A DNA stretch of 63,349 nucleotides, the filler included, from Anaerolineae bacterium (lineage in GTDB: Bacteria; Chloroflexota; Anaerolineae; Epilineales; Epilineaceae): assembly GCA_029262755.1 (NCBI GenBank). It is 7 parts of 7 records of this genome, joined end to end, with 100 filler letters (N's around TTAATTAATTAA, not from the genome) between each part and the next. Parts side by side here need not be neighbours in the genome. Positions count along the whole stretch, not along the records: positions 16,039 to 29,682 come from JAJCYU010000264.1; 6 more parts are not named here. One strand, given 5' to 3'. This document shows, piece after piece, positions 9,177-55,097 of this stretch (positions are counted from its first letter, which is position 1; every line of letters starts with the position of its first letter). The notes beneath the pieces are model-generated. The model saw only the letters and a list, made by a program, of their open reading frames with translations. It searched no databases and had not been told where the DNA came from. Position numbers and translations under genes: made by a program.

Positions 9177-9276
9177 NNNNNNNNNNNNNNNNNNNNNNNN
9201 NNNNNNNNNNNNNNNNNNNNTTAATTAATTAANNNNNNNNNNNNNNNNNNNNNNNNNNNNNNNNNNNNNNNNNNNN
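9177..9276. other. Artificial contig/scaffold linker
   Basis: N-run with central TTAATTAATTAA (stops in all six frames). Confidence 0.98.
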
Positions 9277-9392
9277 CTCCATTTCGCTGCCATGGCTGCT
9301 GGATGATGCCTAGCCGCTTGGCCGGCCTCGCTCGAGGCTCGAGGGACCAACCACGTTGGCATTCGTCCATCGCCACCAACTTGAGGTCTTTC

Positions 9393-11567
9393 GTGATTGC
9401 TCCGAATCGTGCAGCGACCGTGCGTAGTGCAGCCAAACAGCGTGTCCACCGTTTCGGACGCGGCTTGGGCATTGCTCTGGCGATCGCCCTCGCGACCGCA
9501 GCCGCAACCGCCACCGTCCATGCGCAGTCGGAACCGACCGTCGACGCGCTGCTCGGCCCACCGATCGCCAGCGACCTCGCAGCCATCCGCGCCCGCAGTC
9601 CGGAGATCGTGTCATACACGGGCGGACGTGTGATGGCGCTGGCCGCGGAGCGAACGCGTCCGATCGCTTGGGTGGTCCAGGGCTCGCGCGTTGTCGCCTT
9701 CGACGTATCCGGCTACGAGCCGCGCGAACGGGGGCGCACGCCGGTGCTGCCGGATCCGCTCCTCGGGCTCGCCGCAGACGCCGGCCTCGTCCTGGCGTGG
9801 TCGAAGGGCTTCGCGCCCGGCGATGCGTGGCTAATCGACGGGCGTGATCCTAGTTGGCCGCGCGACGTGCGGCCCCTTACGCTGGGCGGGCCGGTGCGCG
9901 CGGCGGTCATGGACGGGCGGACGGCCGTGCTCGTGGTGGGGGACGAGGTGGTCGTGCTCGATGCGGGCGATATGCGGCGGCCTACGATCGTTGCGCGCGC
10001 CCCGTTGCCCGAGGGCGTTCGGGACGAAGGTACACCTCTCGTCGCCTCGCAGGATGGATGGATTGCCGTCGCCGCCGGCGATCGCGCATACGTCGGGCGG
10101 ATCGCGGACGAGGGAGCGATCCGGTGGGCGGCCTACCATCAACGTGGGCGAATCGACCAGATAGAGGTCGCTGGAGATCGCCTCTTCATCCTGGTGGAGC
10201 AACTGCGAATTCAGATCGTAGACTTGAAAGCCGGGGGCTATAGGTTAGAACAGTCCGTCGTCTTCACCCAAGGCGACCACATCATCCTTCGCCTCACGTC
10301 CTTCGTTGCGAGCGAAAGGCAGCTTGTGGTTCGCGAAGCCGGAGTGATTCGGGTGATGGATCGAGTCGGCGGGCCGGATCCCTGGGTCGAGCGCGCCATT
10401 CCACACCTTCGAACAGACGTGAACTGGCTTCAGCGGACCGCAGAGGCTGCCGACGAATTGCGGCTCATTGGGTTGGGGGATGGCCTGGAACTCTTCCGGG
10501 TGCCGGTCTCTCCGATTGGCGCTTTGCGTGCCGTCCTGCGCAGGACGGGCAGCCGCCGGCCCGCGCACGGCCCCCAGTACGCCACGGCGCCGCGCGACGA
10601 CGTGCTGATCACATCGGGTGATCACGAGCTGCGCGTGCTCGACGTCTCGCGTGCGGCGTCGCCCCGGCTTCGCGCTACGGTGGAGACCGACGTTGTGGGC
10701 GCGATTTCGTGGGATATCGTGGGCCGGATCGACTGGATCGGGGACCGTGTTTGGCTTCATGACCGTGACGAGAAGGTGGTCTTTGACGTCGCCGAGTTAG
10801 ACCAACCGCGGCGCCTGGGTAGCGTACCGCACTATCTGCGTGCACCTCCGAACAGCCCGGGCGGCCTCGTGGCCGCGTTGGGGCCGTTTGCCGTGGTGGT
10901 CGATCGTCGCGAAATGGTCGTGCTGGATCAATCCAGTGTCACGGTGCTGCACTCCGAGGTATCGCGCACGGAGTTGCCCGGCTACTCGCTCCGCCTTGCA
11001 GGTGTCTCAGGCGACACGGTGTGGTTCGTCGGGAGCGCACAGTCACGCCTGACTGGCCTGATCGTCGCGGTTGATGCCGGCCGGCCGGAGCAACCGCGGG
11101 TGCTATCAACGACACCGATCGCGCCGCTGGCGAGCGCTGCCACGCTCGTCGCCGATCGCTGGCTCGCGATGATCAGCGTGCCTGTCCCTACCTCCGCTGT
11201 ACTGACGATCATCGACACGAGAGCGGAAGGCGGGCCGCGCGCCGTCGGGCAATTGGAATTCGAGAGCGCCGTGGACGCACGGGCCAGCCTGCGCGCGATG
11301 CCGCATGCCTACGGAAGCGACGTGCTCCTGACGCTGGACGATCGTCGTGTCGTCCACGTCGATCTGAGCGTGCCGGCGTTCCCGGATGAAGAACGCACGT
11401 ATTGGTTGCCCGAGCCGGGTCAATGGCCGTCGCGAGTTGGCGATACGATGTGGTTTGCCGGCAAATTCGGCGGTTTGATGGGCATCCAGCTTGACGGGGC
11501 TCTCTTCGAGCCAGCGACGTGGTTGTCGCTGCCGTTTCTTTCGCGGGCGACGCTTGGGGCGCCGTAG
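9393..11567 (+). CDS. Exported beta-propeller protein (divergent LVIVD-like repeats)
   Basis: Signal segment LGIALAIALATAAATATVHA; repeated 'VLDVSxxxxPR' units; ends WLSLPFLSRATLGAP. GTG 9393 chosen for upstream GAGG; ORF is open from 9303. Confidence 0.75.
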   Translation: MIAPNRAATVRSAAKQRVHRFGRGLGIALAIALATAAATATVHAQSEPTVDALLGPPIASDLAAIRARSPEIVSYTGGRVMALAAERTRPIAWVVQGSRVVAFDVSGYEPRERGRTPVLPDPLLGLAADAGLVLAWSKGFAPGDAWLIDGRDPSWPRDVRPLTLGGPVRAAVMDGRTAVLVVGDEVVVLDAGDMRRPTIVARAPLPEGVRDEGTPLVASQDGWIAVAAGDRAYVGRIADEGAIRWAAYHQRGRIDQIEVAGDRLFILVEQLRIQIVDLKAGGYRLEQSVVFTQGDHIILRLTSFVASERQLVVREAGVIRVMDRVGGPDPWVERAIPHLRTDVNWLQRTAEAADELRLIGLGDGLELFRVPVSPIGALRAVLRRTGSRRPAHGPQYATAPRDDVLITSGDHELRVLDVSRAASPRLRATVETDVVGAISWDIVGRIDWIGDRVWLHDRDEKVVFDVAELDQPRRLGSVPHYLRAPPNSPGGLVAALGPFAVVVDRREMVVLDQSSVTVLHSEVSRTELPGYSLRLAGVSGDTVWFVGSAQSRLTGLIVAVDAGRPEQPRVLSTTPIAPLASAATLVADRWLAMISVPVPTSAVLTIIDTRAEGGPRAVGQLEFESAVDARASLRAMPHAYGSDVLLTLDDRRVVHVDLSVPAFPDEERTYWLPEPGQWPSRVGDTMWFAGKFGGLMGIQLDGALFEPATWLSLPFLSRATLGAP

Positions 11568-11818: not shown

Positions 11819-14800
11819 ATGTCTGCAGTTGCCCCTTTGTCCCGGCGCCCGCGTGTTGCGCGGCGCCTCCTGTTGTGCCTCATTGGAATGCTGTATGTCC
11901 TTGGAGTGATTGGCCTTTTGGAGACCACTTCGTCGGCGCACGGCGTCGACCCCTCGTCCGATGCGATCACCATCGCAGAGGACTTGAATGCGCGTGACCG
12001 GGACCGCAAGGGTCCCACCGTCACGCCGACGAAAGAACCGACGCCGACTCCGTATACGGGCCCGTCGCCCACACCGACGCCCACCGTGTACCCCTTGGGG
12101 CCGCTGGCGCACGTGTTTGGGCTGCGCGCCGAGGACCGCATCGGCTGTAGGAACCGCGGCTTGTACTACACCGACGACGATTTGAGCGAATGCCTTGAGG
12201 AATACGGGCTCAACCAGATGGCAGAGACGCTGCCCGCCACGGGCTGGGTGTCCATCCCGCGCACGAGCACGAAGTTCGTGGTGCCGGACCTGCCGGCCGA
12301 CCCCAACGAGGACGGCACGGTCGACGTGGCCATCACGTTCTCGGCGTTGATTCTCACCGAGTTGCAGGTGGTCGACGCGCCCGTGTACGTGCGTGCGCTG
12401 ATCGACGGCCAGCCGGCCGATCCGGGCAATATCGTTATCTCCGATGGTGAGACGCTGCAGCAGTATCACGTACGCAGCTTCACCTTTAGCGACAAGGCGA
12501 CGCCCGGCATCCACATTGTGGAGATGCAGTGGCTATCGCCCGAGACGAGCGTGCATGTACGGGATGCGTCCGTCGAGGTGATCATCGATCATCCGGAAGG
12601 GAACCTGCACGATCTGGCCGTGCGCAGCTCCAATGGCACGGATCTAGTGCAGATGAACCAGGCCGTTTGGACGGACGTGCCCGACACGCTGCAGGTCTTC
12701 GAGATGCCGGAGAACGGCGAGGTGGCATTTACGTTCGCGGCCAGCTTCAAGATGACGCAGGGTGACTTCTTCATGGTGCGGCCCGTTATCGACGGCGTCG
12801 CGAATGCCGAGCCGCCCTCCATCGAGCTCGGCGGTCGGGTCTTCCACCGCGAAGCGCGTTCGGCCACGTTCACCGTGGATGGGCTCGCACCAGGTTGGCA
12901 CCAGGTGAAGTACCAGTGGCGCGGCAGCCTCACCGACGAGATCGCGATGGCCGAGGTCCGCGGCTACACGTCGCGCGTGCTGGCGGGCCCGAAGCAGACC
13001 GACTCGACGAGCTTCGATGTTTCCGTGCAGCCGGGCCAGGACATGGCGCTGAAGGGGCAAGGATACGTGCCTCTCACGGGCCTGACGGAAGAGATCGAGC
13101 TGCCGGGTAACTCAGAACTCTCTCTTACCTTCAGCGGCGCGGTGACCGGTTGGCAGCCGGTGTTTGTGGCGCCCATGTTGGACGGCGAGGTGCAGTCCGA
13201 CCTCGAGGTCATGGTGCACTACCCGGCCAACTACTGTGACGGCGTGCTGTGCGGCGATGACAACATCACCGATGCCGGCGCCCGCAGCTACACGTTTTCG
13301 TTCAAGAACATGTCGCCGGGTGTCGATCCGCTCGAAATCGGAATGGCTATGCGCGCTTCGGAGAGCGAGAGTGCGTGGGGTATCGTGTGGAACGCGACGA
13401 TGACGGTGCTGCGCCAACCCTATGTCGGCCCGGACCTGGCCGTCGGGGCCAACATGGGCGGCGGATCGAAGAAGAAGCAGGCCATTATCGAGCCGATGCG
13501 CGGTTCGCGTCCGACACTTGCCATCGTCATCGATCCGCAGCGCGAAGATCAGCCCGAGGCGGACGCAGACTATATGAACGGCATCGAGGAACTCGTCTTC
13601 GGGGCCAGCCCGTCGGCCAAGAAGTTCTATGCCGCCAACTCCGGCGGCCGCTTGGACATCGTCAAGGCGGGCCCCGGGGTACTGGGGCCTTACGAGACGC
13701 AGGAGAGCGCGGACCACTACTGGACTCCGCATAGCTGCGTCGGCGACGCGGACGAGGCGCCGGGCGACGAGCAGCACGGCGTGCGCAGCGGCTTCGGCGA
13801 GTTGGTGGCCGAGGCGCTGGCCGCCGCGGACGACGACTTCGACTTCTCAGCCTACGACAACAATCGGGACGGCGTGATCAACTCGGACGAGCTCGCCGTG
13901 ATCGTAGTCACGCCGCAGGAAAGCGCAGGCGGTAGCAGCGCGGTGAGCAACTTCAAGATCAACTGCGAAAGCCCCACCGGCTTCTACAGCGAGGACGGCC
14001 CCGACGGCACGCGCATCCGCCAGTTGCTGCACTGGTACACACCGGGCGTTGGCGATGACCTCGCGACCGCGGTCGCGTCGGCCAACGTGCTCAATCACGA
14101 GTTGGGCCACCTTATTCCGTGGTTGGACGACGCCTACGGTGTCGTACCGGTCTTCAGGCAGGGTCCCAACATAGGCCAGGTCTGCGACATCGACGGCGTG
14201 GACGCCGGCGATCCGGACTGCCAGAAGCGCGTGGTGCCAACCGCGCCGGACATGATCTCGTTGATGTCGCGTTCCGGGTCCAACCTGCCGCACGTGGACG
14301 GCTTCCACAAGGTACAGATGGGCTGGGTGACGCCGGAGTCGGTGATTGCCTCGGGCACCTACACGCTCTCCGACGTCAAGACCGATGGACGGGTGATGAT
14401 CCTACCCCGCCTCAACGCGCCGCACCTCGAGTACTTCTTGCTCGAGACGCGCATCGAGGACAACAACCTGGCCACGGACCGCTACGACTACGGCATCAAC
14501 GACGACGGCTTGGCCATCTATCACGTGATCGAGCCCACCGCGGCCTGCCCGGGCGACCCGGAAGGTTGTGCAACGGCCATGGCGCCGATGTGTGTGCCAC
14601 AGGGCGTGTGGGACAATCACTTCGCGAACTTCGTCCGCACGGGCCTGCGCCTGATCCAGCCCGACGGTGGTCACCGTCTCATCTGCGACCCCGACGGTGT
14701 GTCCAACTGCTACACGGAGACATGGCAGACGTTGTGGGGCGGCGTGGGGCAGTCGATCTGGCAGGACGGTCCGATCTCGTGTCCGCCGGTGATCGGCGAA

Positions 14801-14932
14801 CCCTACCCCGACGGCGGCGCGCCCCAGCTACGCTGGTCCGACGGCACGCCGAGCGGCTACAAGATTCTCAATATCGGCTTCGGCGTGGGTGGCGGCATGG
14901 TCTTCGATCTGGAGACGGCGTATATGCCGTAG
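11819..14932 (+). CDS. Secreted M6 (immune inhibitor A-like) zinc metalloprotease with three N-terminal beta-sandwich repeats
   Basis: 'DFDFSAYDNNRDG' motif, HELGHxxxxxD zinc motif (14096-14128), Met-turn SLMS, 'FHKVQMGW', 'EYFLLETR', 'GLAIYHV'; signal peptide. Confidence 0.85.
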   Translation: MSAVAPLSRRPRVARRLLLCLIGMLYVLGVIGLLETTSSAHGVDPSSDAITIAEDLNARDRDRKGPTVTPTKEPTPTPYTGPSPTPTPTVYPLGPLAHVFGLRAEDRIGCRNRGLYYTDDDLSECLEEYGLNQMAETLPATGWVSIPRTSTKFVVPDLPADPNEDGTVDVAITFSALILTELQVVDAPVYVRALIDGQPADPGNIVISDGETLQQYHVRSFTFSDKATPGIHIVEMQWLSPETSVHVRDASVEVIIDHPEGNLHDLAVRSSNGTDLVQMNQAVWTDVPDTLQVFEMPENGEVAFTFAASFKMTQGDFFMVRPVIDGVANAEPPSIELGGRVFHREARSATFTVDGLAPGWHQVKYQWRGSLTDEIAMAEVRGYTSRVLAGPKQTDSTSFDVSVQPGQDMALKGQGYVPLTGLTEEIELPGNSELSLTFSGAVTGWQPVFVAPMLDGEVQSDLEVMVHYPANYCDGVLCGDDNITDAGARSYTFSFKNMSPGVDPLEIGMAMRASESESAWGIVWNATMTVLRQPYVGPDLAVGANMGGGSKKKQAIIEPMRGSRPTLAIVIDPQREDQPEADADYMNGIEELVFGASPSAKKFYAANSGGRLDIVKAGPGVLGPYETQESADHYWTPHSCVGDADEAPGDEQHGVRSGFGELVAEALAAADDDFDFSAYDNNRDGVINSDELAVIVVTPQESAGGSSAVSNFKINCESPTGFYSEDGPDGTRIRQLLHWYTPGVGDDLATAVASANVLNHELGHLIPWLDDAYGVVPVFRQGPNIGQVCDIDGVDAGDPDCQKRVVPTAPDMISLMSRSGSNLPHVDGFHKVQMGWVTPESVIASGTYTLSDVKTDGRVMILPRLNAPHLEYFLLETRIEDNNLATDRYDYGINDDGLAIYHVIEPTAACPGDPEGCATAMAPMCVPQGVWDNHFANFVRTGLRLIQPDGGHRLICDPDGVSNCYTETWQTLWGGVGQSIWQDGPISCPPVIGEPYPDGGAPQLRWSDGTPSGYKILNIGFGVGGGMVFDLETAYMP

Positions 14933-15139
14933 CGGTGGTACGTTGCGACTACGCGAACACGCGGTAGCAGGCGTGAATCGGCGCCGGCACGGGGGAGCAT
15001 CCCCGTGCCGGCGTCGGTGCGTTTGGGGGGCACAGTGTTGTGCGTAGCGACAACTGTGTTGCAGCATGCGCAAGAGATGGAGCGGAGGGTCCGTCCATAC
15101 AATGCCGGTCATGGGTCCAACGCTATGAGGGAGCGCGCC

Positions 15140-15814
15140 ATGAAGGGACGAATCGCACGACTCCGATCCGCACGGTCGGCACTCCTTATCCTTTTCGCCG
15201 GACTGCTGGCGCCGGCGCAGGCGAGTGCCGAAGGGCTGCTGTTGCTCGCGCCGCCCCTAGACGGGGACCTCGCGGCCTGGCCAGCGCTTGGCATGGCGGC
15301 CGGCGGGGCGGACGGCGGCGCCTCCTACGTGGCGGTGGTGGAGTCGGAGCGGTCCTTGGTGTGGATCGGGCACGGACCGCGGCTACTTGCGCTCGCCGCG
15401 CCGAATGCGGGCGGGAACGGGACGCCATCGGCCGATACAGCCCTGCGCGAGGTGGGCCGCAGTCCGGCGCTTCCCGGCGTGGTGCGGGACATCGCGATCG
15501 GCGACGGCTTCGCGCTCTTGGCCGTCCAAGGGCGGCGCGACACGGCGTGGCTGCTGGATATCAGCGATCCAAGCTGGCCACGCGCCGCGCGTCGCCTGCG
15601 GCTGAGCGCCAACGTGCGCGGTGTTGCGCTCCATGGCGCGATGGCGCTCGTCGCCACCGACAGCGAGCTGGTGCAGCTGCGGATCGACGGACCCGCACGG
15701 GCCGTCGAGGTCTGGCGCACGGATCTGCAAGGCACCGCGCTTGGCCCGGACTCACGCTGGCTTGCCACGGACGGCACGAGGGCGGCCCTCCACCTAAGAG
15801 GCAATCTGGTGTAG
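15140..15814 (+). pseudogene. Probable truncated paralogue of the 9393-11567 propeller protein
   Basis: Shares motifs with the N-terminus of the 9393 protein (REVGRSPALP vs RERGRTPVLP; AWLLDISDPSWPR vs AWLIDGRDPSWPR) but stops after ~224 aa. Confidence 0.5.
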
Positions 15815-15938: not shown

Positions 15939-16038
15939 NNNNNNNNNNNNNNNNNNNNNNNNNNNNNNNNNNNNNNNNNNNNTTAATTAATTAANNNNNN
16001 NNNNNNNNNNNNNNNNNNNNNNNNNNNNNNNNNNNNNN
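15939..16038. other. Artificial linker
   Basis: N/TTAATTAATTAA/N. Confidence 0.98.
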
Positions 16039-16384: not shown

Positions 16385-17044
16385 CTAGCGTGGTTGTGCG
16401 ATTCGCCGCTCGGCGAGCAACACCGGTTCCGAGGCCCCATCCGGCTGCTCGAGCCAGCGCGCGTCACGGCCGTCGGCGTCGAGCTCGACGAACGGGCGCG
16501 CCAGCCCCGGTGTCTCCCACGAAACTCGATCGGGGGACTCCCCATCGCCGGGGAGCCCGCGCACGGTAAACTTCACGGGGCGCACGCGCAGCGCGCCGCG
16601 GTCCACGGTGGATAGGCGAATCAGGGCGGTCATCACGGCGTCTTGGCCGGCTGGGAGCCGGGAGCCGGGAGGCACGCCCAGCGCGAGCATGCGGCCGGCC
16701 AGCGGAGGCCACAAGAGACGGTATCCGGGCGGCAACGCGATGGCCTCGCTCACCGGCTCCGCGCCTCGTCGCCAGATCAGCGCCTCGTCCTCGAAAAACG
16801 TGATTGTGATGTCGATGCGGCCCCGGCCGTCGTGGGCCGGAAGGCGGGCTTGCATGCGCTCCGGACGGCCCGCCTCGTCGAGGCTCAGGTGCCACAACGC
16901 GCCGCGCGCATCCGCAACGCGCACGAGGTGGCGCTCGCCGGGGAGACCGTGGAGCGTCCAGGTCTCGACCTCGCCGTCCGGGCCGACGTAGCTGCCGTGC
17001 TCGATCGGGCGCTCGTGGGCGCCGACGGGATGAAGATTGCGCAC
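16385..17044 (-). CDS. Hypothetical protein
   Basis: GGAGGG SD before GTG at 17044, just downstream of the 6S terminator; globular-looking sequence, no family recognised. Confidence 0.65.
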   Translation of the reverse strand: MRNLHPVGAHERPIEHGSYVGPDGEVETWTLHGLPGERHLVRVADARGALWHLSLDEAGRPERMQARLPAHDGRGRIDITITFFEDEALIWRRGAEPVSEAIALPPGYRLLWPPLAGRMLALGVPPGSRLPAGQDAVMTALIRLSTVDRGALRVRPVKFTVRGLPGDGESPDRVSWETPGLARPFVELDADGRDARWLEQPDGASEPVLLAERRIAQPR

Positions 17045-17073
17045 GAGCGATATCCCTCCGCCGAGCCATAACG

Positions 17074-17102
17074 AAAAGATCGGGGGGCCTGACGCCCCCC
17101 GA
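17074..17102 (-). terminator. Intrinsic terminator downstream of the 6S RNA
   Basis: Minus strand TCGGGGGGC-GTCAG-GCCCCCCGA followed by TCTTTT. Confidence 0.75.
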
Positions 17103-17142
17103 GTTCCAGCAGTGGAGGGCAAAACCCCTCCGAATCATGGCG

Positions 17143-17315
17143 CTGCCGCGCCGGCCGGCGGTGGTCGCTCAACCTGCTTTCGCAGGTGGGTGCCCGCCGG
17201 ACGTCCCGCACACCGTGGGGCCGAACCCCAATTGGGACGGGGCCGTCATCGCGAGTCGGACTCCCAATGAGCTGACGTAGGTTGACGACACATAACACCG
17301 ATCCCGCGCAGCAGT
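17143..17315 (-). ncRNA. ssrS: 6S RNA
   Basis: ~173-nt rod. Terminal pairings CTGCTGCGC/GCGCGGCAG, CGGTG/CACCG, GTCG/CGAC, TCAACCT/AGGTTGA flank a central bubble. TTGGGAGTCCG and GGCACCCACCTGCGAAAGCAGGTTGA resemble Firmicute 6S motifs. Has its own promoter and terminator. Confidence 0.85.
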
Positions 17316-17321
17316 GGCGAC

Positions 17322-17350
17322 AGGCTACCATCGCCCGGTGACGTCGCCAA
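17322..17350 (-). promoter_or_regulatory. Sigma70-type promoter for the 6S RNA
   Basis: Minus strand TTGGCG-17 bp-TAGCCT with TG extension; predicted +1 is the A at 17315. Confidence 0.65.
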
Positions 17351-17376
17351 ACGATTGACATCGCTCGGGTTGGGGG

Positions 17377-17404
17377 TTGACGTAACCGAGGAACCCGGTA
17401 CAAT
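17377..17404 (+). promoter_or_regulatory. Sigma70-type promoter for the RND gene
   Basis: TTGACG-16 bp-TACAAT. Confidence 0.6.
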
Positions 17405-17535
17405 GGGCGTTGGTTATCATCATATTAAGCGGACCGGCTTTCCGACACGTTGGCCCGGCCCGTGGTCTTGGAGGCGGCGCAGTCCCCCACGCGGCGCGCG
17501 CTTCGTGCTCTACGTGCGTGCTGGGAGAACCTGCC

Positions 17536-20500
17536 ATGACCCGATTGACCCGTCTTGCCCTGAACCTTCCTTCCATTACCTTCCTGTTGATGGCCGCCCT
17601 TGTTGTGGCGGGTATCTTCAGCGCCTATGCGCTGAATCAGGAGCTCGTGCCGGACGTCCAGGCGCCTCAAGCCACGATCGTCGTGGTCTATCCGGGCGCC
17701 TCGGCGGACGAGGTGACCAACAGTGTCGTCGCGCCGATCGAGGACGCGATGGAGGAGATCACCGAAATCGAGGTGCTCGAGGTGAGCTCCTTGGCCTCGG
17801 AGTCATTCGCCGCCATCACGGTCTTGTCGGAGTTCGGTATCGATCAGGATGAGATCGAGACCGCGATCGAAGAGAAACTCTCCGACGTCGACTTGCCCGA
17901 TGACGCGGAAGAACCCGAGATTATCCTCTTCAACTTCCAAGACCTGCCGGTGCTGCAGTCGAGCATCAGCGGCGACATTGACGTCCGCGAGTTGCAGCGA
18001 CTGCTCGAAGACGAGATCGTCCCGGAGCTGGAGAAGGTCCCCGGCGTTAGTAGCGTCTCGGTTACCGGCAGCAGCGATGACAAGATATTCCTGCGGCTGG
18101 ACCCGGACGCGCTCGACGAACTCGGCGTTTCTGTTGATCAGATTCGCAACGTCTTGACCGCGAACGATCTGAGCTTTCCCGCGGGTTCGCTGCAGAGCGT
18201 GGGTCGGGTCACGCCGATCCAGGTCACGAACCGGATCGAGACCGCGGAGGCCCTACGTCGCCTGATCATCTCGACGGGCGAAGATTCCAGTGGACCGCCG
18301 GCAGGCGGTCCGCCCGGCGCCGGTGGACCGCCCGTTGGCGCCGCGCGCGCTTCCGCCCCGGCCCAGCCCCTCCCATCGACCGGGCCTTTCCCCATCGCGC
18401 CGGAGCTCCAAGCTCAGGCCCTCTTCTTCGGACTCGACCTGCGTACCACCGATGACCTCACACCCGAGGTCGTTGCCCAGCTCGAGCAGGCGGATCCCGC
18501 CTTCTTGCGCAGCGCGGCCGAACAGATCGTGGACGGGCTGCCGCCGGGCGGGTTCGCGCAATTGCCTGCGGACGTGATCGCGTCGCTGCCGGCGGACCTA
18601 CGCAACGATCTTGCGGCCCGTAGCGCGGCGAACGCCGTTTCGAGCGCCCCCGATGCGGACGCGTCTGATTCCGAGGACGAAGCGTCGGCAGAGGACGATG
18701 AGCCGTCTGAGGAGGAAGACAGGGGACGCGAGAACGCTTCCGTGGTGCGTTTGGTCATCGTCCAAGACGGGGAGACGCTGCAATCGCTCTCGGATCGCTA
18801 CGGCGTGCCGGTCACAACCATCGCAGAAGACAACGGGATTGGCACCGATGCGGAGCTCGAGGCGGGGACGGCGATTCGCATCCCGCGCTCCGCGGACGAT
18901 GCGCTGCCGCTCGTGTGGCAGCTGGTCGGCGTGGACGATGCGTCGGACATCACGCCGGATCAGCTCAACCAGGTCCTATCGATCGCACCAAACTCGCTCA
19001 ACGACCTTACGGCGGACCAGCTGCTCCGCCTCCCGCCGGAGACGATCGAGGCGCTACCGAGTGCGTTGCTCGCGCGGCAGGACGCGGACGTGCTCGACGC
19101 GTTGATTGCGCGCCGTGACGGCGAGGCGGACACGGACGAAGACCTCGCGGACGAGGACGACGAGCCGCTACCCGAGGTGGCCGACAGCGATGACCTGCCT
19201 GAGGGTTGGGTGCGCATCGGCGACGTCGCGGATGTGGTCGTCGGCCCCGAAGATGCCTCGACGATCAACCGGACGAACGGCGATACTTCGCTCGGCTTGA
19301 TCGTGCTCAAGGAGCGTTCGGCCAACACGGTGTCCGTGGTCAAGGCCGTCGAAGAGGAATTTGAAGCGCTGCAGGACGATATCCCTGAGTTCAACGCCCT
19401 CGAGGTGCGGACCGTATTCGAGCAGGCCTCCTTCATCGAGGAGTCGCTCAACGGTGTCCGCAACGAGGGCTTCCTCGGTGGCGTGTTCGCGGTGCTGATC
19501 ATCCTGCTCTTCCTCGGCTCCGTGCGCTCGACCTTGATCATCGGCATCAGCATTCCGCTCTCGATCCTCACCGCGCTGCTCTTGATGCGCGTGTTCGGGC
19601 TCTCGTTGAACCTTCTGACCCTCTCCGGCCTGACGATCGCCATCGGCCGTGTGGTCGACGACTCGATCGTTGTGTTGGAGAACATCTATCGCAACATGCA
19701 ACGCGGCGCGCGGCGCAAGGACGCGATCATCACCGGTACGCGCCAGGTGGCCGCGGCCATCACGGCGGCGACGCTCATCACGGTCGCGGTCTTCCTGCCC
19801 CTGGGCTACGTCGGCGGCCTGACGCGTGAGTTCTTCGCGCCCTTCGCGCTTACGACGGCCTTCGCGCTCTTGGCCAGCCTGATCGTGGCCGTCACCGTGA
19901 TTCCGCTGCTCGCCCGCACCTTCCTGCGCCAAGACCGATTGCCGGAAGAGCGCGAGACGTGGCTACAGCGCGTCTATACGCCCATCCTCGAATGGGCGTT
20001 GGATCACCCGTGGATCACGCTCGGCGCTTCGACGTTGATCTTTGTGGCCAGCCTCGGCCTCGCGCGGTTCATCCCCCAGAACTTCCTGGGTGCTTTCGGT
20101 GACCCTGCGATTACGGTCGAGATAAGCCTGCCCTCGGGTACGGACCTCGCCACGACCGACGCGGTGTCCCTGTTGGTCGAAGAGATCCTCGAGGACGAGG
20201 ACGACATCGAGAACTACGAGACCACGGTCGGGCGCGGCAGCACGTTCTTCGGCGCGTTCGCCGGCGGGGATCCGGGCAAAGCCTTCTTCTTCGCCAGCTT
20301 CCCGGACGACTCCGATCAGGGCTTCTTCGAGAAGCTGTTCAACGAGTCCACGGTCGACGAACCGGACACGGTCGCCAAGCGGCTTCGCGCCGATCTGCGC
20401 GCGCTCAACAGCCTGGATGAGATTGAAGAGCGGCTACCGAGCGCGGGTACCCTGACCGAAGACGAGGCGGAGCGCATCGTAACGAACTTGAGTGGGGCGG

Positions 20501-22302
20501 TCGCGGAAGCGAACCTCGAGCGCGGCTCTGCGGGCGATATATTCGACTTCACCGTGAGCGCTGGATCGAACGGTGGTCCGCCTGGCGGCGTATACGACCT
20601 GCGCGTGACCGGCGAGGACGAGGACAAGGTGCGGGAAGCGACGGGGTTGATCTTGACGGCCTTGCAAGAGCCGACCCATTGGGAAGACCTCGACTACGTG
20701 CTCGACGAAGAAGACGACAACGGCGACGAGGACGACGAGGACGACGAGGACGAGACGGAGGACGACAAGACCTTCTGGGAACGCATCTTCGATACCGGCG
20801 GCGACGACGACGATGACGACGACGACGCGACGGAGATCGGGCTGGACGACCTGCCCATCATCAACATCGGCAGCAACCTCAGCGAAGCGCGGCGGATCCT
20901 GGCCGTGGACGTCGATCCTGGGCTGGCGCTCGAGAACGGCCTCACCACGATCCAGGTCGCGTTCCAGTTGCGCGCCATCTTCGAAGGCGACGAGCTTGGG
21001 AACCTGGAGCTGGTCAACGACGGCCGCAGAGACCGGCTCGAGGTCGTGGCGACCTATCCGGACGATCTGATCACCAACAAGACCTCGTTGGAGAATTATC
21101 GTCTGAAGTCGCCCGGCGGCGACCCGGTCCGCCTCGGCGATATCGCCACGGTCGAGTTGCGCGAGGGCGCCGTGGAGATCACGCGCGTCGACGGAGAGCG
21201 CACGGCCCTGATCTCCGGCGAAATTCTGGACGAGGACGTCTTCGGGATCACGGCGGACGCCAGCTCGATCATCGACGATCTGAAGGAAGATCACGAGGAT
21301 CTCTTCGGCGACGTCAACGATGATCCGGATGACGAAGACTACGAGGAGCCGCCGGTGATCGTCGGCGCGGGTCTGGAATCGTCGCAGCAGCAGGACGGCT
21401 TCAGCGACCTGCTGCTCGCGCTGCCCGTGTCCATCCTGATCGTCTACCTGATCATGGTGGTGGAGTTTGGCTCGCTTGCCACGCCGTTCGTGATCTTGTT
21501 CAGCCTGCCCTTCGCTCTTACCGGAGCGCTCTTCGCCCTCGCGGCGACGCAGCGGGCGCTGTCCATCTCCAGCATGATCGGGGTGTTGATGCTCATCGGC
21601 ATTGTGGTCACCAATGCCATCGTCCTGCTGGATTTTGTGAAACAGTTGCGGGACGAGGGTATGGACATCCGCTCAGCGCTCGTGGAAGGCGGACGGACGC
21701 GAGTCCGGCCGATCATCATGACCGCGCTGGCCACGGTGATCGCGTTGATTCCGCTGGCTCTGGGCTTCACCGAGGGCGCCATCATCGCCGAGGAATTGGC
21801 GACGACGGTTATCGGTGGTCTGACCACCTCCACATTGCTGACGCTGGTCGTCGTGCCCGTGGTCTACCAGTTGATCAGTGGTCTCAGCGACCGCGACTTC
21901 TTCGCGGACGAGGATGGTGATGGGGGCGGAGACGGTGGTGGGGACGACCGAGGCGGAGGCTCATGGACGCCTGCGCCGCCCGAGTCCTACGAACCGGGCA
22001 GCGGCGCGCAGTCGATGGCGGCGCCCGATCCCTTCGCACCGCCTCCGCCCGTCGTGCCGCCGGTCGCACCGACGCTAGCGACGTCGCCGACACCTTCACC
22101 GGCACCCTCATCCGCTCCGTCGCCTTCGGGCTCGGTCGCGGGCACGTTGGGCGCACGGCAGGTGGGCGATGCGGCTCCGGCCGCGGACAACCTAACAGAG
22201 CGCGCGGCCCGGATCGCGCAGGCCGCCGATGATCTGGCCGACGACCTCGAAGACGAGGCGGCGGGCTGGTTCGACGAAGGGGGCGAAGGCGATGGGGCCT
22301 GA
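17536..22302 (+). CDS. RND efflux transporter permease (AcrB/SwrC-like) with large inserts including a LysM domain
   Basis: GRVVDDSIVVLEN (TM4), GIVVTNAIVLLD, RVRPIIMT, VIGGLTTSTLLTLVVVP; GGAG SD before ATG 17536; LysM at 18742-18885. Confidence 0.93.
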   Translation: MTRLTRLALNLPSITFLLMAALVVAGIFSAYALNQELVPDVQAPQATIVVVYPGASADEVTNSVVAPIEDAMEEITEIEVLEVSSLASESFAAITVLSEFGIDQDEIETAIEEKLSDVDLPDDAEEPEIILFNFQDLPVLQSSISGDIDVRELQRLLEDEIVPELEKVPGVSSVSVTGSSDDKIFLRLDPDALDELGVSVDQIRNVLTANDLSFPAGSLQSVGRVTPIQVTNRIETAEALRRLIISTGEDSSGPPAGGPPGAGGPPVGAARASAPAQPLPSTGPFPIAPELQAQALFFGLDLRTTDDLTPEVVAQLEQADPAFLRSAAEQIVDGLPPGGFAQLPADVIASLPADLRNDLAARSAANAVSSAPDADASDSEDEASAEDDEPSEEEDRGRENASVVRLVIVQDGETLQSLSDRYGVPVTTIAEDNGIGTDAELEAGTAIRIPRSADDALPLVWQLVGVDDASDITPDQLNQVLSIAPNSLNDLTADQLLRLPPETIEALPSALLARQDADVLDALIARRDGEADTDEDLADEDDEPLPEVADSDDLPEGWVRIGDVADVVVGPEDASTINRTNGDTSLGLIVLKERSANTVSVVKAVEEEFEALQDDIPEFNALEVRTVFEQASFIEESLNGVRNEGFLGGVFAVLIILLFLGSVRSTLIIGISIPLSILTALLLMRVFGLSLNLLTLSGLTIAIGRVVDDSIVVLENIYRNMQRGARRKDAIITGTRQVAAAITAATLITVAVFLPLGYVGGLTREFFAPFALTTAFALLASLIVAVTVIPLLARTFLRQDRLPEERETWLQRVYTPILEWALDHPWITLGASTLIFVASLGLARFIPQNFLGAFGDPAITVEISLPSGTDLATTDAVSLLVEEILEDEDDIENYETTVGRGSTFFGAFAGGDPGKAFFFASFPDDSDQGFFEKLFNESTVDEPDTVAKRLRADLRALNSLDEIEERLPSAGTLTEDEAERIVTNLSGAVAEANLERGSAGDIFDFTVSAGSNGGPPGGVYDLRVTGEDEDKVREATGLILTALQEPTHWEDLDYVLDEEDDNGDEDDEDDEDETEDDKTFWERIFDTGGDDDDDDDDATEIGLDDLPIINIGSNLSEARRILAVDVDPGLALENGLTTIQVAFQLRAIFEGDELGNLELVNDGRRDRLEVVATYPDDLITNKTSLENYRLKSPGGDPVRLGDIATVELREGAVEITRVDGERTALISGEILDEDVFGITADASSIIDDLKEDHEDLFGDVNDDPDDEDYEEPPVIVGAGLESSQQQDGFSDLLLALPVSILIVYLIMVVEFGSLATPFVILFSLPFALTGALFALAATQRALSISSMIGVLMLIGIVVTNAIVLLDFVKQLRDEGMDIRSALVEGGRTRVRPIIMTALATVIALIPLALGFTEGAIIAEELATTVIGGLTTSTLLTLVVVPVVYQLISGLSDRDFFADEDGDGGGDGGGDDRGGGSWTPAPPESYEPGSGAQSMAAPDPFAPPPPVVPPVAPTLATSPTPSPAPSSAPSPSGSVAGTLGARQVGDAAPAADNLTERAARIAQAADDLADDLEDEAAGWFDEGGEGDGA

Positions 22303-22363
22303 GACCGACAACCTTGGAATCCGAGCACAAGGAGCTGGGAACACGATCATGGAGATTCGAACG

Positions 22364-23464
22364 ATGAACGTCCGACTACTGGCCATCGCCATGGCCGTGC
22401 TTGCGGCAACTTTGTTCGGCGCGCAGGTCCACGCGTCGGTCCCTACACAGACCGGTGACGGCGCCCTGGAGGGCATTGTCTTCCTGGACGAAGACGGGGA
22501 CGGTCAATTGGCTGCTACCGAGGACGGGCTCGCCTCGTTCATGGTGCAGCTCGAGCGCGAGGACGATTCCATCTCCACGCGACAGACCAACCGCGGCGGC
22601 AACTACCGATTCTCCAACCTCGAGGCCGGACGCTACACCGTGCGCCTCGTCGAGCGCTCAGGCTATGCCAAGAGCGGCATCGATGTCTATCTCAACGTCG
22701 AGGTGAAGGACGACGGCCGAGCGATCGAGGGCATCGATTTCGCGGTCATCGAAGTCGACGAAGACGAGATGGACGAAGATGCAGCGGCGGACGAGGATGA
22801 AGACGCGGACGAGGATATGGACGAGGACGCGGATGAGGACGCGGACGACGACGAGGATACCGACGAAGCGATGATGAGCGCTGACGCGGACGATAGCCTC
22901 GACGCGATGGCTGCGGCCGTTGCCGGCGGCGAGCTGCCCGCGGGCATGAGCGCCGAGATGTCGGCGATGATCGCGGACCTGGACGACGCACAGGCCGAGG
23001 CGCTCTCCGATGCACTCGCCGAGCGCGACGAAGAGCAGATGGCCGATGTCGCCGCGGAGCTGAGCGACGCGCAGCGCGCCATGTTGGCCGCGGCGCTGCG
23101 CGAAAGCGGCGCCGACGACATGGCGATGGCCGCCTCCGGTGCATCTATGGATGCGGATGCGGATGCGGACGACGGCGATGACGGGGACGATGGCGATCAC
23201 GGCGATGACGATGATGATGATGAAGCCATGGACGAGGACAACGACGACCGCGAAGCCGACGTCGATGAGGATGACGGCGACGACGACGACGACGGCGACG
23301 ATGAGGGCGGCGACACGGATGATGCCGACGAGGCCGCTTCGCCTTCGAACATGCCGGAGGCCGGGTTGGCTGATTTGGGTGGCCCGGGCTTGCTCGCGCT
23401 GCTCGCGTTGGTCTTCGCGGCGGTCGGTGGCTTCGGGATGTGGCGCGAGCGCCTGCTGAACTAG
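22364..23464 (+). CDS. Exported SdrD-B/CnaB-like domain protein with an acidic low-complexity stalk and LPXTG-like anchor
   Basis: Signal peptide; 'GIVFLDEDGDG...GNYRFSNLEAGRYTV'; Asp/Glu/Met-rich stalk; MPEAG, then a TM helix and WRERLLN. Alternative start 22349. Confidence 0.8.
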   Translation: MNVRLLAIAMAVLAATLFGAQVHASVPTQTGDGALEGIVFLDEDGDGQLAATEDGLASFMVQLEREDDSISTRQTNRGGNYRFSNLEAGRYTVRLVERSGYAKSGIDVYLNVEVKDDGRAIEGIDFAVIEVDEDEMDEDAAADEDEDADEDMDEDADEDADDDEDTDEAMMSADADDSLDAMAAAVAGGELPAGMSAEMSAMIADLDDAQAEALSDALAERDEEQMADVAAELSDAQRAMLAAALRESGADDMAMAASGASMDADADADDGDDGDDGDHGDDDDDDEAMDEDNDDREADVDEDDGDDDDDGDDEGGDTDDADEAASPSNMPEAGLADLGGPGLLALLALVFAAVGGFGMWRERLLN

Positions 23465-23592
23465 ACGTAGGACGTTCGCGCGCGGCAGTACCGCTTGGCT
23501 CCCGGATTAGAGGACGAGGGCACGGTGGGTGGGAACACGCGCACGTAGAAGGACCGCAGCACACGACGAGCGTGGGGACGGATGCACGGATG

Positions 23593-23615
23593 AGGCGACC
23601 TTCGGGTCGCCTTTT
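23593..23615 (+). terminator. Intrinsic terminator
   Basis: AGGCGACC-TTCG-GGTCGCCT followed by a T-run. Confidence 0.8.
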
Positions 23616-23735
23616 CCGTTTTGTAGATCCGTTTCGTAGATCCGGTCCGGAAGGAGCCTCGCGGCCGGAAGGCTGATTGCTTGACTGGCCCCAAGAGCCG
23701 GTGCGCACGGCCCTCCGATCAGCCTCCGCGCATCG

Positions 23736-25538
23736 TCAGCCCTGCGCGTGTGGCTCGTCCTTGGTAGGTCGCACGGCGATGCCGAGGACCTTGAGGTTGG
23801 CGTCGGCAACCGGTGCCGGAGCACCCGTCATCGGATCCGAGGCGACGAGCGTCTTGGGGAACGCAATGACCTCGCGGATCGTGCGCTCGCCGGCGAGCAG
23901 CATGACGGTGCGATCCCAGCCCCAGGCGATGCCGCCGTGCGGTGGGGCGCCGTAGCTGAAGGCCTCGAGCATATGGCCGAACTCTTCCTCCGCCTGCTCC
24001 GGCGCGATGCCGAGCAGACCGAACGCGGCCAATTGAAGCTCAGGCTCGTGGATCCGGACGGAGCCACCGGCGATCTCATAGCCGTTGCACACCAGATCGT
24101 AGGCTTGCGCGCGTACGGCGGCGGGGTCGTCGGCCATGCCGGCTACGTCCTCGGGCCGGGGGGCCGTGAAGGGGTGGTGCACGGCGTCCCAGCGGTCCTC
24201 GTCCGCGTTCCACTCCACGAGAGGCGCATCGACAATCCAACAGCAGGCCAACTCGCCATCGGGGATCAACGCGAGTTGGTCGGCCAGGTCGGTGCGAAGG
24301 CGGCCTAGGGCGGCATGCGCCACGGCAGCCTCGGCGGCGACGAAGAGCAGCATCGCCCCGCCGTCCTCCGACTCGGCCTGGCGAGCCGCGATCGACGCAT
24401 GCTCGCGCATCCCTTCGATCTCTGCCTCGCTCAGGAATTTGGCGATGGGGCCGCGCACGCCCTCGGCCTCGTAGGCAAGCCAAGCAAGGCCGGCGGCGCC
24501 GCGTTGTTTGGCGGTCTCTTCCAGGGCGTCGATCTGCTTGCGGGTGAAGATTCCGGGCACAGCCAGGGCCTTCACGACGCCGCCCTTGGCGATCGTGCCC
24601 GAGAAGACCTTGAAGCCGGAACCCGCGACGACGGCGCTCAGATCAACAAGCTCCAGGCCGTAGCGTAGGTCGGGTTGGTCGGTGCCGAAGCGGGCCATGG
24701 CCTCGTCGAAGGGGATGCGCGGGAAGGGCGTCTCGCGGAAGCGCAGATGCGGCGCGACGGCGGCGGACATCTCGAGCATCAAACGCTCGTTGATCGCCAT
24801 GACGTCGTCGGCGTCGACGAAGGACAGCTCCATGTCGAGTTGGGTGAACTCCGGCTGCCGGTCGGCACGGAGATCCTCGTCACGAAAACAGCGTGCGAAC
24901 TGGTAGTAGCGGTCGACGCCGGCGACCATCAAGATCTGCTTCGTCTGCTGTGGGCTCTGCGGCAAGGCGTAGAAGCGCCCTGGATGCTCGCGGCTGGGCA
25001 CGAGGTAGTCACGCGCGCCCTCGGGCGTCGCACGGGTGAGGATGGGCGTCTCGACATCGAGGAAGGCTTCGCGGTCGAGGAAGGCGCGCGCAAAGGATGT
25101 CGCTTCGTGGCGCAGCCGTAGGTTGCGTGCCATGCGCGCGCGCCGCAGGTCGAGATAGCGGTACTGCATGCGCAGGTTCTCGTCGATGTTGAGCTCGCGG
25201 CTGACCTCGAAAGGCGGTACCTGGCTTGCGCTGAGCACGCGGAGGGCGCTCACGCGTACCTCGATACCACCGGTGTCGAGCTCCGGGTTGGCATCGATTC
25301 GCTCGCTCACCGTGCCGTCGACGGCCACGACCCATTCGTGACCAAGCGAATGCGCCGCTTCGAACGCCGCGGCGTCCACATCGGAATCGAACGTGACCTG
25401 GGTAATCCCGTGGCGATCGCGCAGATCCACAAAGACGAGCCCGCCGTGATCTCGGCGCCGATGGACCCAGCCGGCCAAGGTGACGGATGTGCCCGCGTGC
25501 GCGGCACGTAGCTCGCCGCAAGTGTGGGTGCGCAACAT
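23736..25538 (-). CDS. aspS: Aspartate--tRNA ligase (possibly non-discriminating Asp/Asn type)
   Basis: MLRTHTCGEL, RRDHGG, YRYLDLRR, FYALPQSPQ, FRDEDLRADRQPEFTQ, GAPPHGG. His in RDHGG is associated with non-discriminating enzymes. Confidence 0.97.
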   Translation of the reverse strand: MLRTHTCGELRAAHAGTSVTLAGWVHRRRDHGGLVFVDLRDRHGITQVTFDSDVDAAAFEAAHSLGHEWVVAVDGTVSERIDANPELDTGGIEVRVSALRVLSASQVPPFEVSRELNIDENLRMQYRYLDLRRARMARNLRLRHEATSFARAFLDREAFLDVETPILTRATPEGARDYLVPSREHPGRFYALPQSPQQTKQILMVAGVDRYYQFARCFRDEDLRADRQPEFTQLDMELSFVDADDVMAINERLMLEMSAAVAPHLRFRETPFPRIPFDEAMARFGTDQPDLRYGLELVDLSAVVAGSGFKVFSGTIAKGGVVKALAVPGIFTRKQIDALEETAKQRGAAGLAWLAYEAEGVRGPIAKFLSEAEIEGMREHASIAARQAESEDGGAMLLFVAAEAAVAHAALGRLRTDLADQLALIPDGELACCWIVDAPLVEWNADEDRWDAVHHPFTAPRPEDVAGMADDPAAVRAQAYDLVCNGYEIAGGSVRIHEPELQLAAFGLLGIAPEQAEEEFGHMLEAFSYGAPPHGGIAWGWDRTVMLLAGERTIREVIAFPKTLVASDPMTGAPAPVADANLKVLGIAVRPTKDEPHAQG

Positions 25539-29682: not shown

Positions 29683-29782
29683 NNNNNNNNNNNNNNNNNN
29701 NNNNNNNNNNNNNNNNNNNNNNNNNNTTAATTAATTAANNNNNNNNNNNNNNNNNNNNNNNNNNNNNNNNNNNNNNNNNNNN
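29683..29782. other. Artificial linker
   Basis: N/TTAATTAATTAA/N. Confidence 0.98.
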
Positions 29783-34269: not shown

Positions 34270-34439
34270 CGCGCCGGCTTCGCCGTGAAATGCGGTGACG
34301 CCCGCGACGGTCACCCCCCTGCCCTCGACCGTCCGACGCACCGGCGAAAACGCCGGTGACCCCCCGCAGCCGCCGGCCCCATCCGGGGCCTACTCGGCTG
34401 CCTTATGAGCTGAATAGCCCGAATCGAGGAGGAGCATCC

Positions 34440-35792
<1,353 letters not shown>

Positions 35793-40543: not shown

Positions 40544-41111
40544 GCACGCGCGTCGCGATCCACGGTTTCGGCCGCACGGGCCGCCAGGCCTTCAAGGCGA
40601 TCTGGAAGCACTACCGCGACCGTTTGGAAGTCGCCGCGATCGGCATCGAGAATCTGGCCGACGCCCACGCCGCCGCCCACTTGTTGCAATACGATTCGAA
40701 CTACGGCCGCTTCGGCTCCGAGGTCAGCGTGCTCGACCACGAGCTCCGTGTGGACGGCGTCGCGATCCCGCTCGTCGCCGCCGACTCGCTGGCCGAGCTG
40801 CCCTGGAGCCGCTTGGGCGTCGATATCGTCATCGAGGCCACCGGCGTCTACGCCGGCGGCGGTCGCGCGGCGGGCCACCTGGAAGCCGGCGCGAACAAGG
40901 TCATCATCACCGCCCCGAGCGACGACGCCGACTTCACGCTCATCTGCGGCGTGAACGACGCCGACTACGACCCCACCGCGCACCACGTGGTCTCGACCGG
41001 CTCCGACACGACCAACGCGCTCGCTCCGGTCCTGAGCGCGCTGCTCGGTGAGTTCGAGATCAAGAACGCCTTGCTGACGGCGGTGCGCGCCTATACCAAC
41101 GCGCAGAAGCT
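40540..41111 (+). CDS. GAPDH-family paralogue lacking the catalytic Cys/His (3' truncated by linker)
   Basis: IHGFGRTGR, LLQYDSNYG, VIEATG, KVIITAP; active-site segments read STGSDTTNALAP and TAVRAYT. Confidence 0.88.
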
Positions 41112-41211
41112 NNNNNNNNNNNNNNNNNNNNNNNNNNNNNNNNNNNNNNNNNNNNTTAATTAATTAANNNNNNNNNNNNNNNNNNNNNNNNNNNNNNNNN
41201 NNNNNNNNNNN
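41112..41211. other. Artificial linker
   Basis: N/TTAATTAATTAA/N. Confidence 0.98.
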
Positions 41212-54997: not shown

Positions 54998-55097
54998 NNN
55001 NNNNNNNNNNNNNNNNNNNNNNNNNNNNNNNNNNNNNNNNNTTAATTAATTAANNNNNNNNNNNNNNNNNNNNNNNNNNNNNNNNNNNNNNNNNNNN
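54998..55097. other. Artificial linker
   Basis: N/TTAATTAATTAA/N. Confidence 0.98.

Follow-up and report, generated by a model that had tools for sequence, protein, structure and literature searches.

RND (resistance-nodulation-division) pumps are known almost wholly from two-membrane bacteria, in which the docking domain meets an adaptor and TolC. What a docking domain would do in a single-membrane bacterium is the question raised by one gene in a stretch of 63,349 nucleotides from an Anaerolineae bacterium (assembly GCA_029262755.1), the whole of which, seven parts joined with filler, is referred to as the window. The gene encodes an RND permease whose DN docking hairpin carries a 312-residue insert built of a LysM domain, two helical units and three linkers. 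LysM domains bind polymers of N-acetylglucosamine (GlcNAc), namely peptidoglycan and chitin oligomers. A LysM inside an RND docking hairpin appears to be undescribed, and the pump itself belongs to PF00873; no description of an RND with an internal LysM was found in the literature at the level of titles and abstracts, with subscription journals and InterPro architectures outside the search. The pump and its relatives form a clade that provides a concrete and testable case for the role of the docking domain in single-membrane bacteria, where the insert probably serves to hold the pump to the cell wall.

The insert in the docking hairpin

The encoded protein matches Pfam ACR_tran in three stretches (5.7e-187, 624 bits, cut-off 28), with weak overlapping matches to MMPL (34.6 bits, secondary to ACR_tran) and SecD_SecF. 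In a phmmer search against the sequences of the PDB, residues 6-246 align with MdtB 14-256, residues 559-892 with MdtB 263-603 (AcrB 260-504), and residues 1183-1450 with MdtB 775-1025. Because the first two blocks flank residues 247-558, these 312 residues replace about six at the turn of the DN hairpin, standing in place of MdtB 257-262 (AcrB ~254-259) between two DN strands. The turn is presumably the short upward-pointing, or vertical, hairpin at the rim of the AcrB exit funnel, which Tamura et al. reportedly cross-linked to TolC in 2005. An AlphaFold2 (AF2) model of residues 30-605 was calculated from a 22-row alignment (mean pLDDT 78.3, pTM 0.37), with the strands of the N-terminal part of DN at model positions 196-200 and 215-217. 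The model superposes on AcrD, MexY and AcrB over residues ~34-311 and leaves the insert over, the best superposition being with AcrD (8f4r_B, Z 15.8, root-mean-square deviation 4.8 over 235 residues, chain 38-311), and the first loop is therefore best described as an ordinary PN1-PN2-DN loop with the insert as an extra.

A sequence-only reading of the window had proposed an insert of ~312 aa at 18271-19206 in the TolC-docking subdomain, with a LysM at 18742-18885 and two Leu/Pro-rich helical blocks. The length and the subdomain hold, with boundaries shifted by one codon to 18274-19209, and the LysM falls inside the interval named for it. Its Pfam match (PF01476, cut-off 20.9) reaches 2.9e-9 and 37.2 bits on the whole protein, 39.9 bits on the insert alone and 42.6 bits on a 77-aa piece. 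The two blocks prove to be repeats of a single ~80-aa unit, matched at residues 284-364 and 455-528 and scored in Table 1 with a hidden Markov model (HMM) that was built partly from these same two copies. The LysM is predicted to adopt the beta-alpha-alpha-beta fold (strands at model positions 374-379 and 417-422, helices at 386-393 and 397-404, pLDDT 91-96). The nearest solved sequence is that of a cell wall-binding endopeptidase-related protein (4uz2/4uz3, E 2.6e-8), and a cortical-lytic enzyme (4s3j) and LytE (8i2e) are also close. Between the LysM and unit 2 the pLDDT dips to 80, with no stretch below 50, and since there is no break in confidence between them the two may move as one module.

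The insert is no misassembly, a possibility that the same reading had left for checking. Logan contigs of sequencing run X1, which may be the source sample, match the window with 0 differences over 17400-18308, 18310-18932 and 18970-20702 and span both insert junctions, the 5' junction with just ~35 bases on its far side. The 3' junction (19153-19389) is also spanned, with 14 differences, in run X4, which belongs to another study, and runs X2 and X3 contain short, nearly identical pieces within the insert. None of the sequencing runs listed as containing the sequence is an RNA run, which has no bearing on expression.

Table 1. Features of the RND gene, its insert and its flanks, by position in the window
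Feature	Position	Strand	Details
Divergent open reading frame (ORF), 245 aa	16385-17122	-	50% identity over 162 aa, E 2e-47, to L173:7706-8314(-)
Promoter-like TTGACG-16-TACAAT	17377-17404	+	10/12 consensus matches
ORF	17410-22302	+	No internal stops; open from TTG 17410
RND permease gene	17536-22302	+	1588 aa plus stop
DN docking subdomain, N-terminal part	18079-18273	+	About residues 182-246, ends 'AEALRRLII'; MdtB alignment to 256
Linker 1	18274-18384	+	Residues 247-283, Pro/Gly/Ala-rich, 24% Pro, 24% Gly; pLDDT <50 at model 223-250
Helical unit 1	18385-18627	+	Residues 284-364; unit HMM 91.7 bits; pLDDT 80-96
Linker 2	18628-18750	+	Residues 365-405, acidic, 37% Asp+Glu; pLDDT <50 at model 342-371
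LysM	18757-18885	+	Residues 408-450, PF01476
Helical unit 2	18898-19137	+	Residues 455-534; unit HMM 70.6 bits; pLDDT 90-97; directly after LysM
Linker 3	19138-19209	+	Residues 535-558, 50% Asp+Glu, back to DN strand 'VRIGDVADV'; pLDDT <50 at model 506-522
TM4 Asp-Asp (D708, D709)	19657-19662	+	In 'GRVVDDSIVV', aligned to MdtB 'gfvvddaivv'
Poly-acidic segment, second extracytoplasmic loop	20683-20853	+	Residues 1050-1106, 60% Asp+Glu
TM10 Thr1359	21610-21612	+	MdtB has Lys there ('givvtna' vs 'givkkna')
C-terminal low-complexity tail	21883-22299	+	Residues 1450-1588, Pro/Gly/Ala-rich, acidic; varies among relatives
SdrD_B-like surface protein gene	22349-23464	+	Directly 3' of the RND gene; Pfam SdrD_B 47.8 bits

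LysM-bearing pumps and the helical unit family

A word-index search with the insert identified three proteins that combine ACR_tran with LysM (P0003, P0004 and P0005, at 52, 50 and 41% identity over the insert) and five further RNDs with inserts but without LysM. When 1.84 billion representatives were scanned in full with HMMER, 1385 matched at E <= 0.001, mostly proteins with multiple LysM. Among the 150 matches listed, six are RNDs with a LysM at ACR_tran profile position ~248-266: P0011 (22.1 bits), P0012 (22.8), P0014 (31.0), P0022 (37.3), the fragment P0025 (31.8) and P0043 (40.1). The LysM exceeds the Pfam cut-off in all nine relatives (22.1-40.1 bits). A further 21 long LysM matches were scanned, and there is no RND among them; each has 4-11 LysM copies, either alone or in a wall hydrolase (SLT, NlpC/P60, M23, YkuD, phage lysozyme).

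Including the window protein, all ten members of the clade possess the LysM and unit 2 at the same site (37-74% identity), with G412, G423, N433, G444, R448 and P450 of the LysM and L457, P458, W461, P474, P485, R514 and Q515 of unit 2 invariant throughout. Unit 1 is present in seven of the eight N-terminally complete proteins, being absent in P0022; it is absent also from the N-terminally short P0043, and P0025 starts past it. The linkers, linker 1 among them, vary in sequence and length and keep their composition. A phylogenetic tree was built from 46 rows and 988 columns, with poorly filled columns, and hence the insert, excluded and the partial ORF L057 left out. The ten LysM-RNDs lie on one side of a branch with an SH-aLRT support of 100, which fits a single origin. 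GTDB species genomes were scanned with patterns for the LysM plus unit 2, drawn from a five-sequence alignment because the alignment of ten modules is too diverse for patterns, and none of the 63 pattern matches was confirmed as a clade member; a metagenome scan yielded just two loci. A whole-protein pattern search was set aside, as it picked low-complexity acidic patterns and returned just distant diderm RNDs at 25-36% identity.

It is very improbable that the insert is a functionless, neutral decoration of one lineage or an artefact of assembly. Such an explanation could draw on the acidic and Pro-rich low-complexity segments that are frequent elsewhere in the protein; however, the modules of the insert are predicted to fold with high confidence, and the explanation is already largely refuted by the junction contigs, one of them from another study, and by the retention of the LysM and unit 2 with invariant residues in ten homologues from separate sources.

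The strong conservation of the LysM and unit 2 as a single module, together with the position of the insert at the funnel rim on flexible linkers, is consistent with a gate or sensor, in which the arm would fold over the funnel as a plug and be freed when the LysM binds the wall, coupling export to the state of the wall. We consider this unlikely. The low pTM of the AF2 model means that the placement of the insert modules, relative to one another and to the head, is not reliably predicted.

The helical unit carries the signature LPxxW..G.x.xTTxDhTPE...AP..L..LTPE..L....LP and is present in 2-8 copies in RNDs of Anaerolineae, Ardenticatenaceae, Promineifilaceae and other Chloroflexota. The unit HMM gives weak matches in Herpetosiphon and found 0 copies in 13 RNDs of Actinomycetota, Ktedonobacteraceae and one further partial ORF. 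The two units of the window align with 25 units from nine loci (alignment A5), no Pfam family covers them, and an AF2 model from the 27 units (pLDDT 84.1, pTM 0.62) has six short helices. A Foldseek search of the PDB with this model gave 0 matches at E <= 0.001, and VIA-align against 48,161 chains gave none with Z >= 5, the best (Z 4.4) being generic alpha-solenoids and helical repeats. The unit was not found in the ESM Atlas, where the homologue P0008 had no usable match. These comparisons are too weak to assign a fold to the unit or to exclude one, and they do not imply that its predicted fold is new. The unit is a newly defined helical module of ~80 aa, without a Pfam family or a clear counterpart among solved folds.

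Such units could in principle build a duct, the units and a LysM collar of three protomers forming a wall-crossing stalk or channel like the coiled-coil tube of MmpL5. This is unlikely as well, if marginally less so than a gate. In its favour, Chloroflexota RNDs carry the unit in arrays, some of which replace DN in proteins that also lack DC, other monoderm RNDs have helical insertions at the tips of docking hairpins, and MmpS5L5 is described, in the part of the source available, as a trimer with an alpha-helical coiled-coil tube (PMC12501195). The pump of the window, however, has just two units, parted by low-confidence linkers of 28-30 modelled residues; each unit is a small bundle of short helices with no long coiled coil, its weak structural neighbours are generic, and P0022 and P0043 carry a single unit. 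A complex prediction with three copies of the unit (score 0.00, mark 0.42) bears on neither side.

The Chloroflexota RNDs with unit arrays (among them L018, L026 and P0006-P0009) share the unit family with the LysM-RNDs, with the units between PN2 and the rest of loop 1, but they form a separate clade with LysM in 0 of 29 proteins, and the Anaerolineae type among them has neither DN nor DC. This type comprises P0006, P0007 and P0008 and the clade of L014-L018, L023, L025, L026, L038 and L039. Its members align to the canonical actinobacterial RND L019 except at residues 216-303 and 734-822 of the latter, which are DN and DC; DN is replaced by 3-8 helical units and DC is simply missing. From these alignments, the Anaerolineae-type RNDs seem to have lost the whole docking and funnel domain. 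In the cultured Herpetosiphon geysericola DSM 7119, an RND of 1304 aa (L013:9878-13789) has an insert of ~230 aa at ACR_tran position ~252, formed by a Gly/Pro linker and three ~57-aa repeats ('FGITSPDQITPAVI.QLP.AGL...') that are a short variant of the unit of the window, without LysM. Since this cultured organism has a related array at the same site, experiments are possible.

Breaks of other kinds are present in further RNDs. In eight RNDs of Actinomycetota (L072, L073, L077, L086, L088, L021, L040 and L033), the ACR_tran match breaks at ~781-783 (840 in L033), adjoining the expected DC hairpin, and three of the eight have weak matches to coiled-coil families. The break in L073 holds ~170 aa that are highly charged and helix-like, with a central Pro-rich stretch. 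Judged from sequence, this break resembles a helical hairpin and brings to mind the extension of MmpL4/5. A Gly/Met/Gln-rich insert of ~200 aa is present in L089 at profile position 251. P0099 (184 aa) joins a UPRTase fragment (residues 8-87) to one helical unit (91-148, 50.5 bits) and is probably a chimeric or contig-edge gene call and not a free-standing unit.

Envelope context and probable attachment to the wall

The scaffold is that of AcrB/MdtB-type (HAE1-like) permeases, with 12 transmembrane helices (TM) and two loops over residues 6-1450, porter and docking subdomains, the TM4 Asp-Asp pair and the TM11 Arg (R1391). Unlike these permeases, the pump of the window has the DN insert, acidic segments in loop 2, a tail of 139 aa and a Thr for Lys in TM10, and no adaptor or outer-membrane partner gene was found nearby among the ORFs scanned. 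The sequence-only reading had called the Asp-Asp pair intact, and D708 and D709 are indeed aligned with those of MdtB and invariant in alignment A1 (8 sequences), although the first Asp is lost in two of the ten members of the LysM clade (P0022 and P0043). T1359 and N1360 are invariant across all eight A1 sequences, so that the TM10 Lys of the AcrB type, which we take to be AcrB K940, is absent. Neither this substitution nor the place of the two Leu/Pro-rich blocks in a wider module family of Chloroflexota RNDs had been noted in the sequence-only reading. The loop-2 poly-acidic segment is absent from P0014, P0022, P0043 and P0025. Scores against the multidrug RND models of NCBIfam are far under every cut-off (NF033617, 541.5 vs 1250; NF000282, 390.3 vs 1250; TIGR00915, 345 vs 940), and the label 'multidrug pump' should therefore not be assumed.

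Other counterparts are SwrC of Bacillus subtilis and FemT of Staphylococcus aureus, which are described in the available parts of two sources as AcrB-like pumps that have no outer-membrane channel and export lipopeptide or isoprenoid lipids (bioRxiv 10.64898/2026.08.10.744025; PMC8277102). FemT is reported there to contact enzymes of peptidoglycan synthesis and SwrC to contact a lipoprotein (bioRxiv 10.64898/2026.08.10.744025). By these descriptions, SwrC and FemT have ordinary docking domains and reach the wall through partners, whereas the pump of the window has a putative wall-binding domain built in. We presume that it exports actively, driven by protons, in the manner of SwrC and FemT. 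The mycobacterial MmpL4 and MmpL5, as far as their available descriptions go, likewise have a distal extension of their own in the extracytoplasmic domain that replaces the adaptor and TolC duct, but they belong to a different RND family and have a long coiled coil and no carbohydrate-binding domain. With short-helix units, three low-confidence linkers and the weak MMPL score, the pump of the window falls outside the MmpL4/5 type.

A further group of counterparts is that of wall enzymes (NlpC/P60, SLT, LytE, SleL), which share the LysM family. Their LysM domains attach them non-covalently to peptidoglycan. In these enzymes several LysM stand at the terminus of a soluble hydrolase, as against one LysM in a transporter loop here.

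The absence of an adjacent adaptor (MFP) or TolC gene, also proposed from the sequence, is borne out in the window: 54 ORFs besides the RND gene were scanned, from a total of 139 with >=150 aa, and none matches an MFP or OEP family of Pfam. The rest are for the most part under 200 aa or alternative frames that overlap one another. Neither family was found in 11 ORFs around a LysM-RND homologue at another locus (L173). OEP (the TolC family, PF02321) was found in none of four genomes with related RNDs, other than the source genome, and a control was positive in 7 of 14 well-known genomes. Across GTDB genomes, the 80 loci that rank highest for this RND type all belong to Chloroflexota or Actinomycetota, two phyla that are generally held to be single-membraned. 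In a tree of aspartyl-tRNA synthetase (AspRS), the enzyme encoded in the window groups with its L173 counterpart (62% identity, support 100), next to sequences from Chloroflexota.

It is reasonably probable, on the evidence of a genuine LysM, its site in the DN hairpin, the lack of a nearby adaptor or TolC, the intact Asp-Asp pair and the single-membrane relatives, that the protein is a stand-alone RND pump, a trimer that binds peptidoglycan through three tethered LysM modules. The trimer, the peptidoglycan ligand, the single-membrane envelope, the tethering role and the substrate are all inferred. The sequence-only reading had offered a stand-alone pump tethered to wall glycan or one that builds its own trans-wall extension; the former stands as the best reading, and the latter is unsupported because AF2 gives three folded modules on three low-confidence linkers, with no continuous stalk or tube. 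A delivery of envelope material, which that reading had raised as a possibility, is not supported either.

In such a tethered pump, an AcrB-type exporter would stand alone in an uncultured bacterium that is probably single-membraned and nearest to Chloroflexota, and each protomer would carry the 312-residue arm at its DN hairpin turn. If the trimer is like that of AcrB, the exit funnel would be ringed by three LysM modules, whose tethers could extend as far as the wall. The modules would bind GlcNAc-containing glycan strands of peptidoglycan there and fix the pump head to the wall, an attachment that would take the structural place of the adaptor and TolC in two-membrane bacteria. Linker 3 (24 residues, at most ~8-9 nm if extended) and unit 2 would form the shorter arm to the LysM; with a head of ~7 nm, the LysM could stand up to ~15-19 nm above the membrane. 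That reach would be of the order of the inner wall zone that Matias and Beveridge reportedly described for Gram-positive cells in 2005. Transport would be driven by the conserved TM4 Asp-Asp relay, and the substrate would probably be an amphiphilic lipid or lipopeptide, as with SwrC and FemT.

Several points weigh against a peptidoglycan tether. The ligand may be something other than peptidoglycan, since LysM domains bind further GlcNAc polymers, among them chitin oligomers, and the LysM of P0011 and P0012 is barely above the cut-off. There is one LysM per protomer, as against the 4-11 copies of other long LysM proteins, and avidity would hang on the unproven trimer. With a net charge of -51, the insert may be hindered in approaching an anionic wall if there are no bridging cations, and the tether model assigns the helical units no role. 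The phylum placement comes from a single AspRS tree with weak phylum-level support, and the negative results for MFP and TolC come from the ORFs scanned in the window and around the L173 homologue and, for TolC, from four related genomes other than the source genome.

A hand-off of cargo would also make use of a LysM tethered beside the exit funnel, which would capture or escort an exported GlcNAc amphiphile (a lipid-linked glycan, a wall precursor or a lipo-chitooligosaccharide) at the funnel exit without any anchoring. Such a role accords with the binding of GlcNAc oligomers by LysM, which is established. One RND family is reported as an exporter of nodulation factors, and lipids and lipopeptides are described as the cargo of Gram-positive RNDs (PMC8277102; bioRxiv 10.64898/2026.08.10.744025). 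However, there are no genes for synthesis of glycolipids or wall precursors beside the pump gene in the window or at L173, and no biosynthetic partner gene is conserved there; the conserved neighbours are just a 245-aa ORF without a family and AspRS, the nearest solved LysM sequences come from wall hydrolases, and nothing points to the identity of a substrate. A hand-off is therefore improbable, if less so than a gate or a duct.

The tethered pump may have a wider setting. Helical-unit arrays, coiled-coil-like hairpins and the loss of DN and DC together suggest that docking hairpins are a general hot spot at which monoderm pumps gain parts that span or bind the envelope. With the unit arrays of Chloroflexota, the coiled-coil-like hairpin of Actinomycetota and the LysM of this clade as its cases, a broader proposal is that single-membrane bacteria re-engineered AcrB-type pumps by placing distal partners in their docking hairpins, and that the LysM form is a peptidoglycan-docked port that would release GlcNAc-related or other envelope lipids into the wall matrix, serving envelope construction and not detoxification. 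We hold this proposal to be doubtful, if more credible than any of the alternatives discussed above.

Neighbouring genes and other features of the window

The likely start of the RND gene is the ATG at 17536, with GGGAG 8 nt 5' of it. The promoter-like sequence upstream is the sole site of its kind in 17000-23800 (shuffled mean 0.7) and is a match to the consensus alone. The order of the 245-aa ORF, the RND gene, AspRS and the next gene is shared between the window and L173, where the homologue of the divergent ORF occupies the same place beside the LysM-RND; the ORF itself has no match in Pfam or NCBIfam.

Directly 3' of the RND gene, the SdrD_B-like gene encodes a protein with 28.5% Asp+Glu, an isoelectric point (pI) of 4.05, a signal-like N-terminus and a C-terminus resembling a sorting signal ('MPEAG', a hydrophobic stretch and a basic tail). 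The first strong terminator-like hairpin 3' of the RND gene is at 23592-23613, and the two genes are possibly co-transcribed. The SdrD_B-like protein was considered as a functional partner and rejected, because its gene is not kept beside the L173 homologue. The RND protein has a net charge of -203 and a pI of 4.05, and since the AspRS, GAPDH, cytochrome P450 and LysM-GH5 proteins of the window have a pI of 5.0-8.6, the acidity is a trait of the RND and its neighbouring surface protein and not of the proteome.

A second LysM protein is encoded at 34356-35792 (+), in which a LysM (55.8 bits) precedes a GH5 cellulase-like domain; the protein has a pI of 8.6, and its LysM is just 32% identical to that of the RND. 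This LysM-GH5 protein suggests that LysM is in use on the surface of this cell.

Six non-natural stretches, each with two runs of 44 N around 12 bases, are present in the window (9177-9276, 15939-16038, 29683-29782, 41112-41211, 54998-55097 and 60470-60569). They fall between or at the ends of ORFs and appear to cut SecA (27545-29674) and the GAPDH gene (40540-41163). Near the window end lies a gene (61881-62951, +) for an integrase-core (rve) transposase. On the 5' side of the RND gene there are five large, secreted-looking ORFs, at 11819-14932 (+), 4332-7001 (+), 9303-11567 (+), 15005-15814 (+) and 7832-9136 (-). They include an M6-like metalloprotease domain with an HELGH motif (78.7 bits, cut-off 110.8), an LVIVD-repeat protein, a PKD-domain protein and two proteins without any family.

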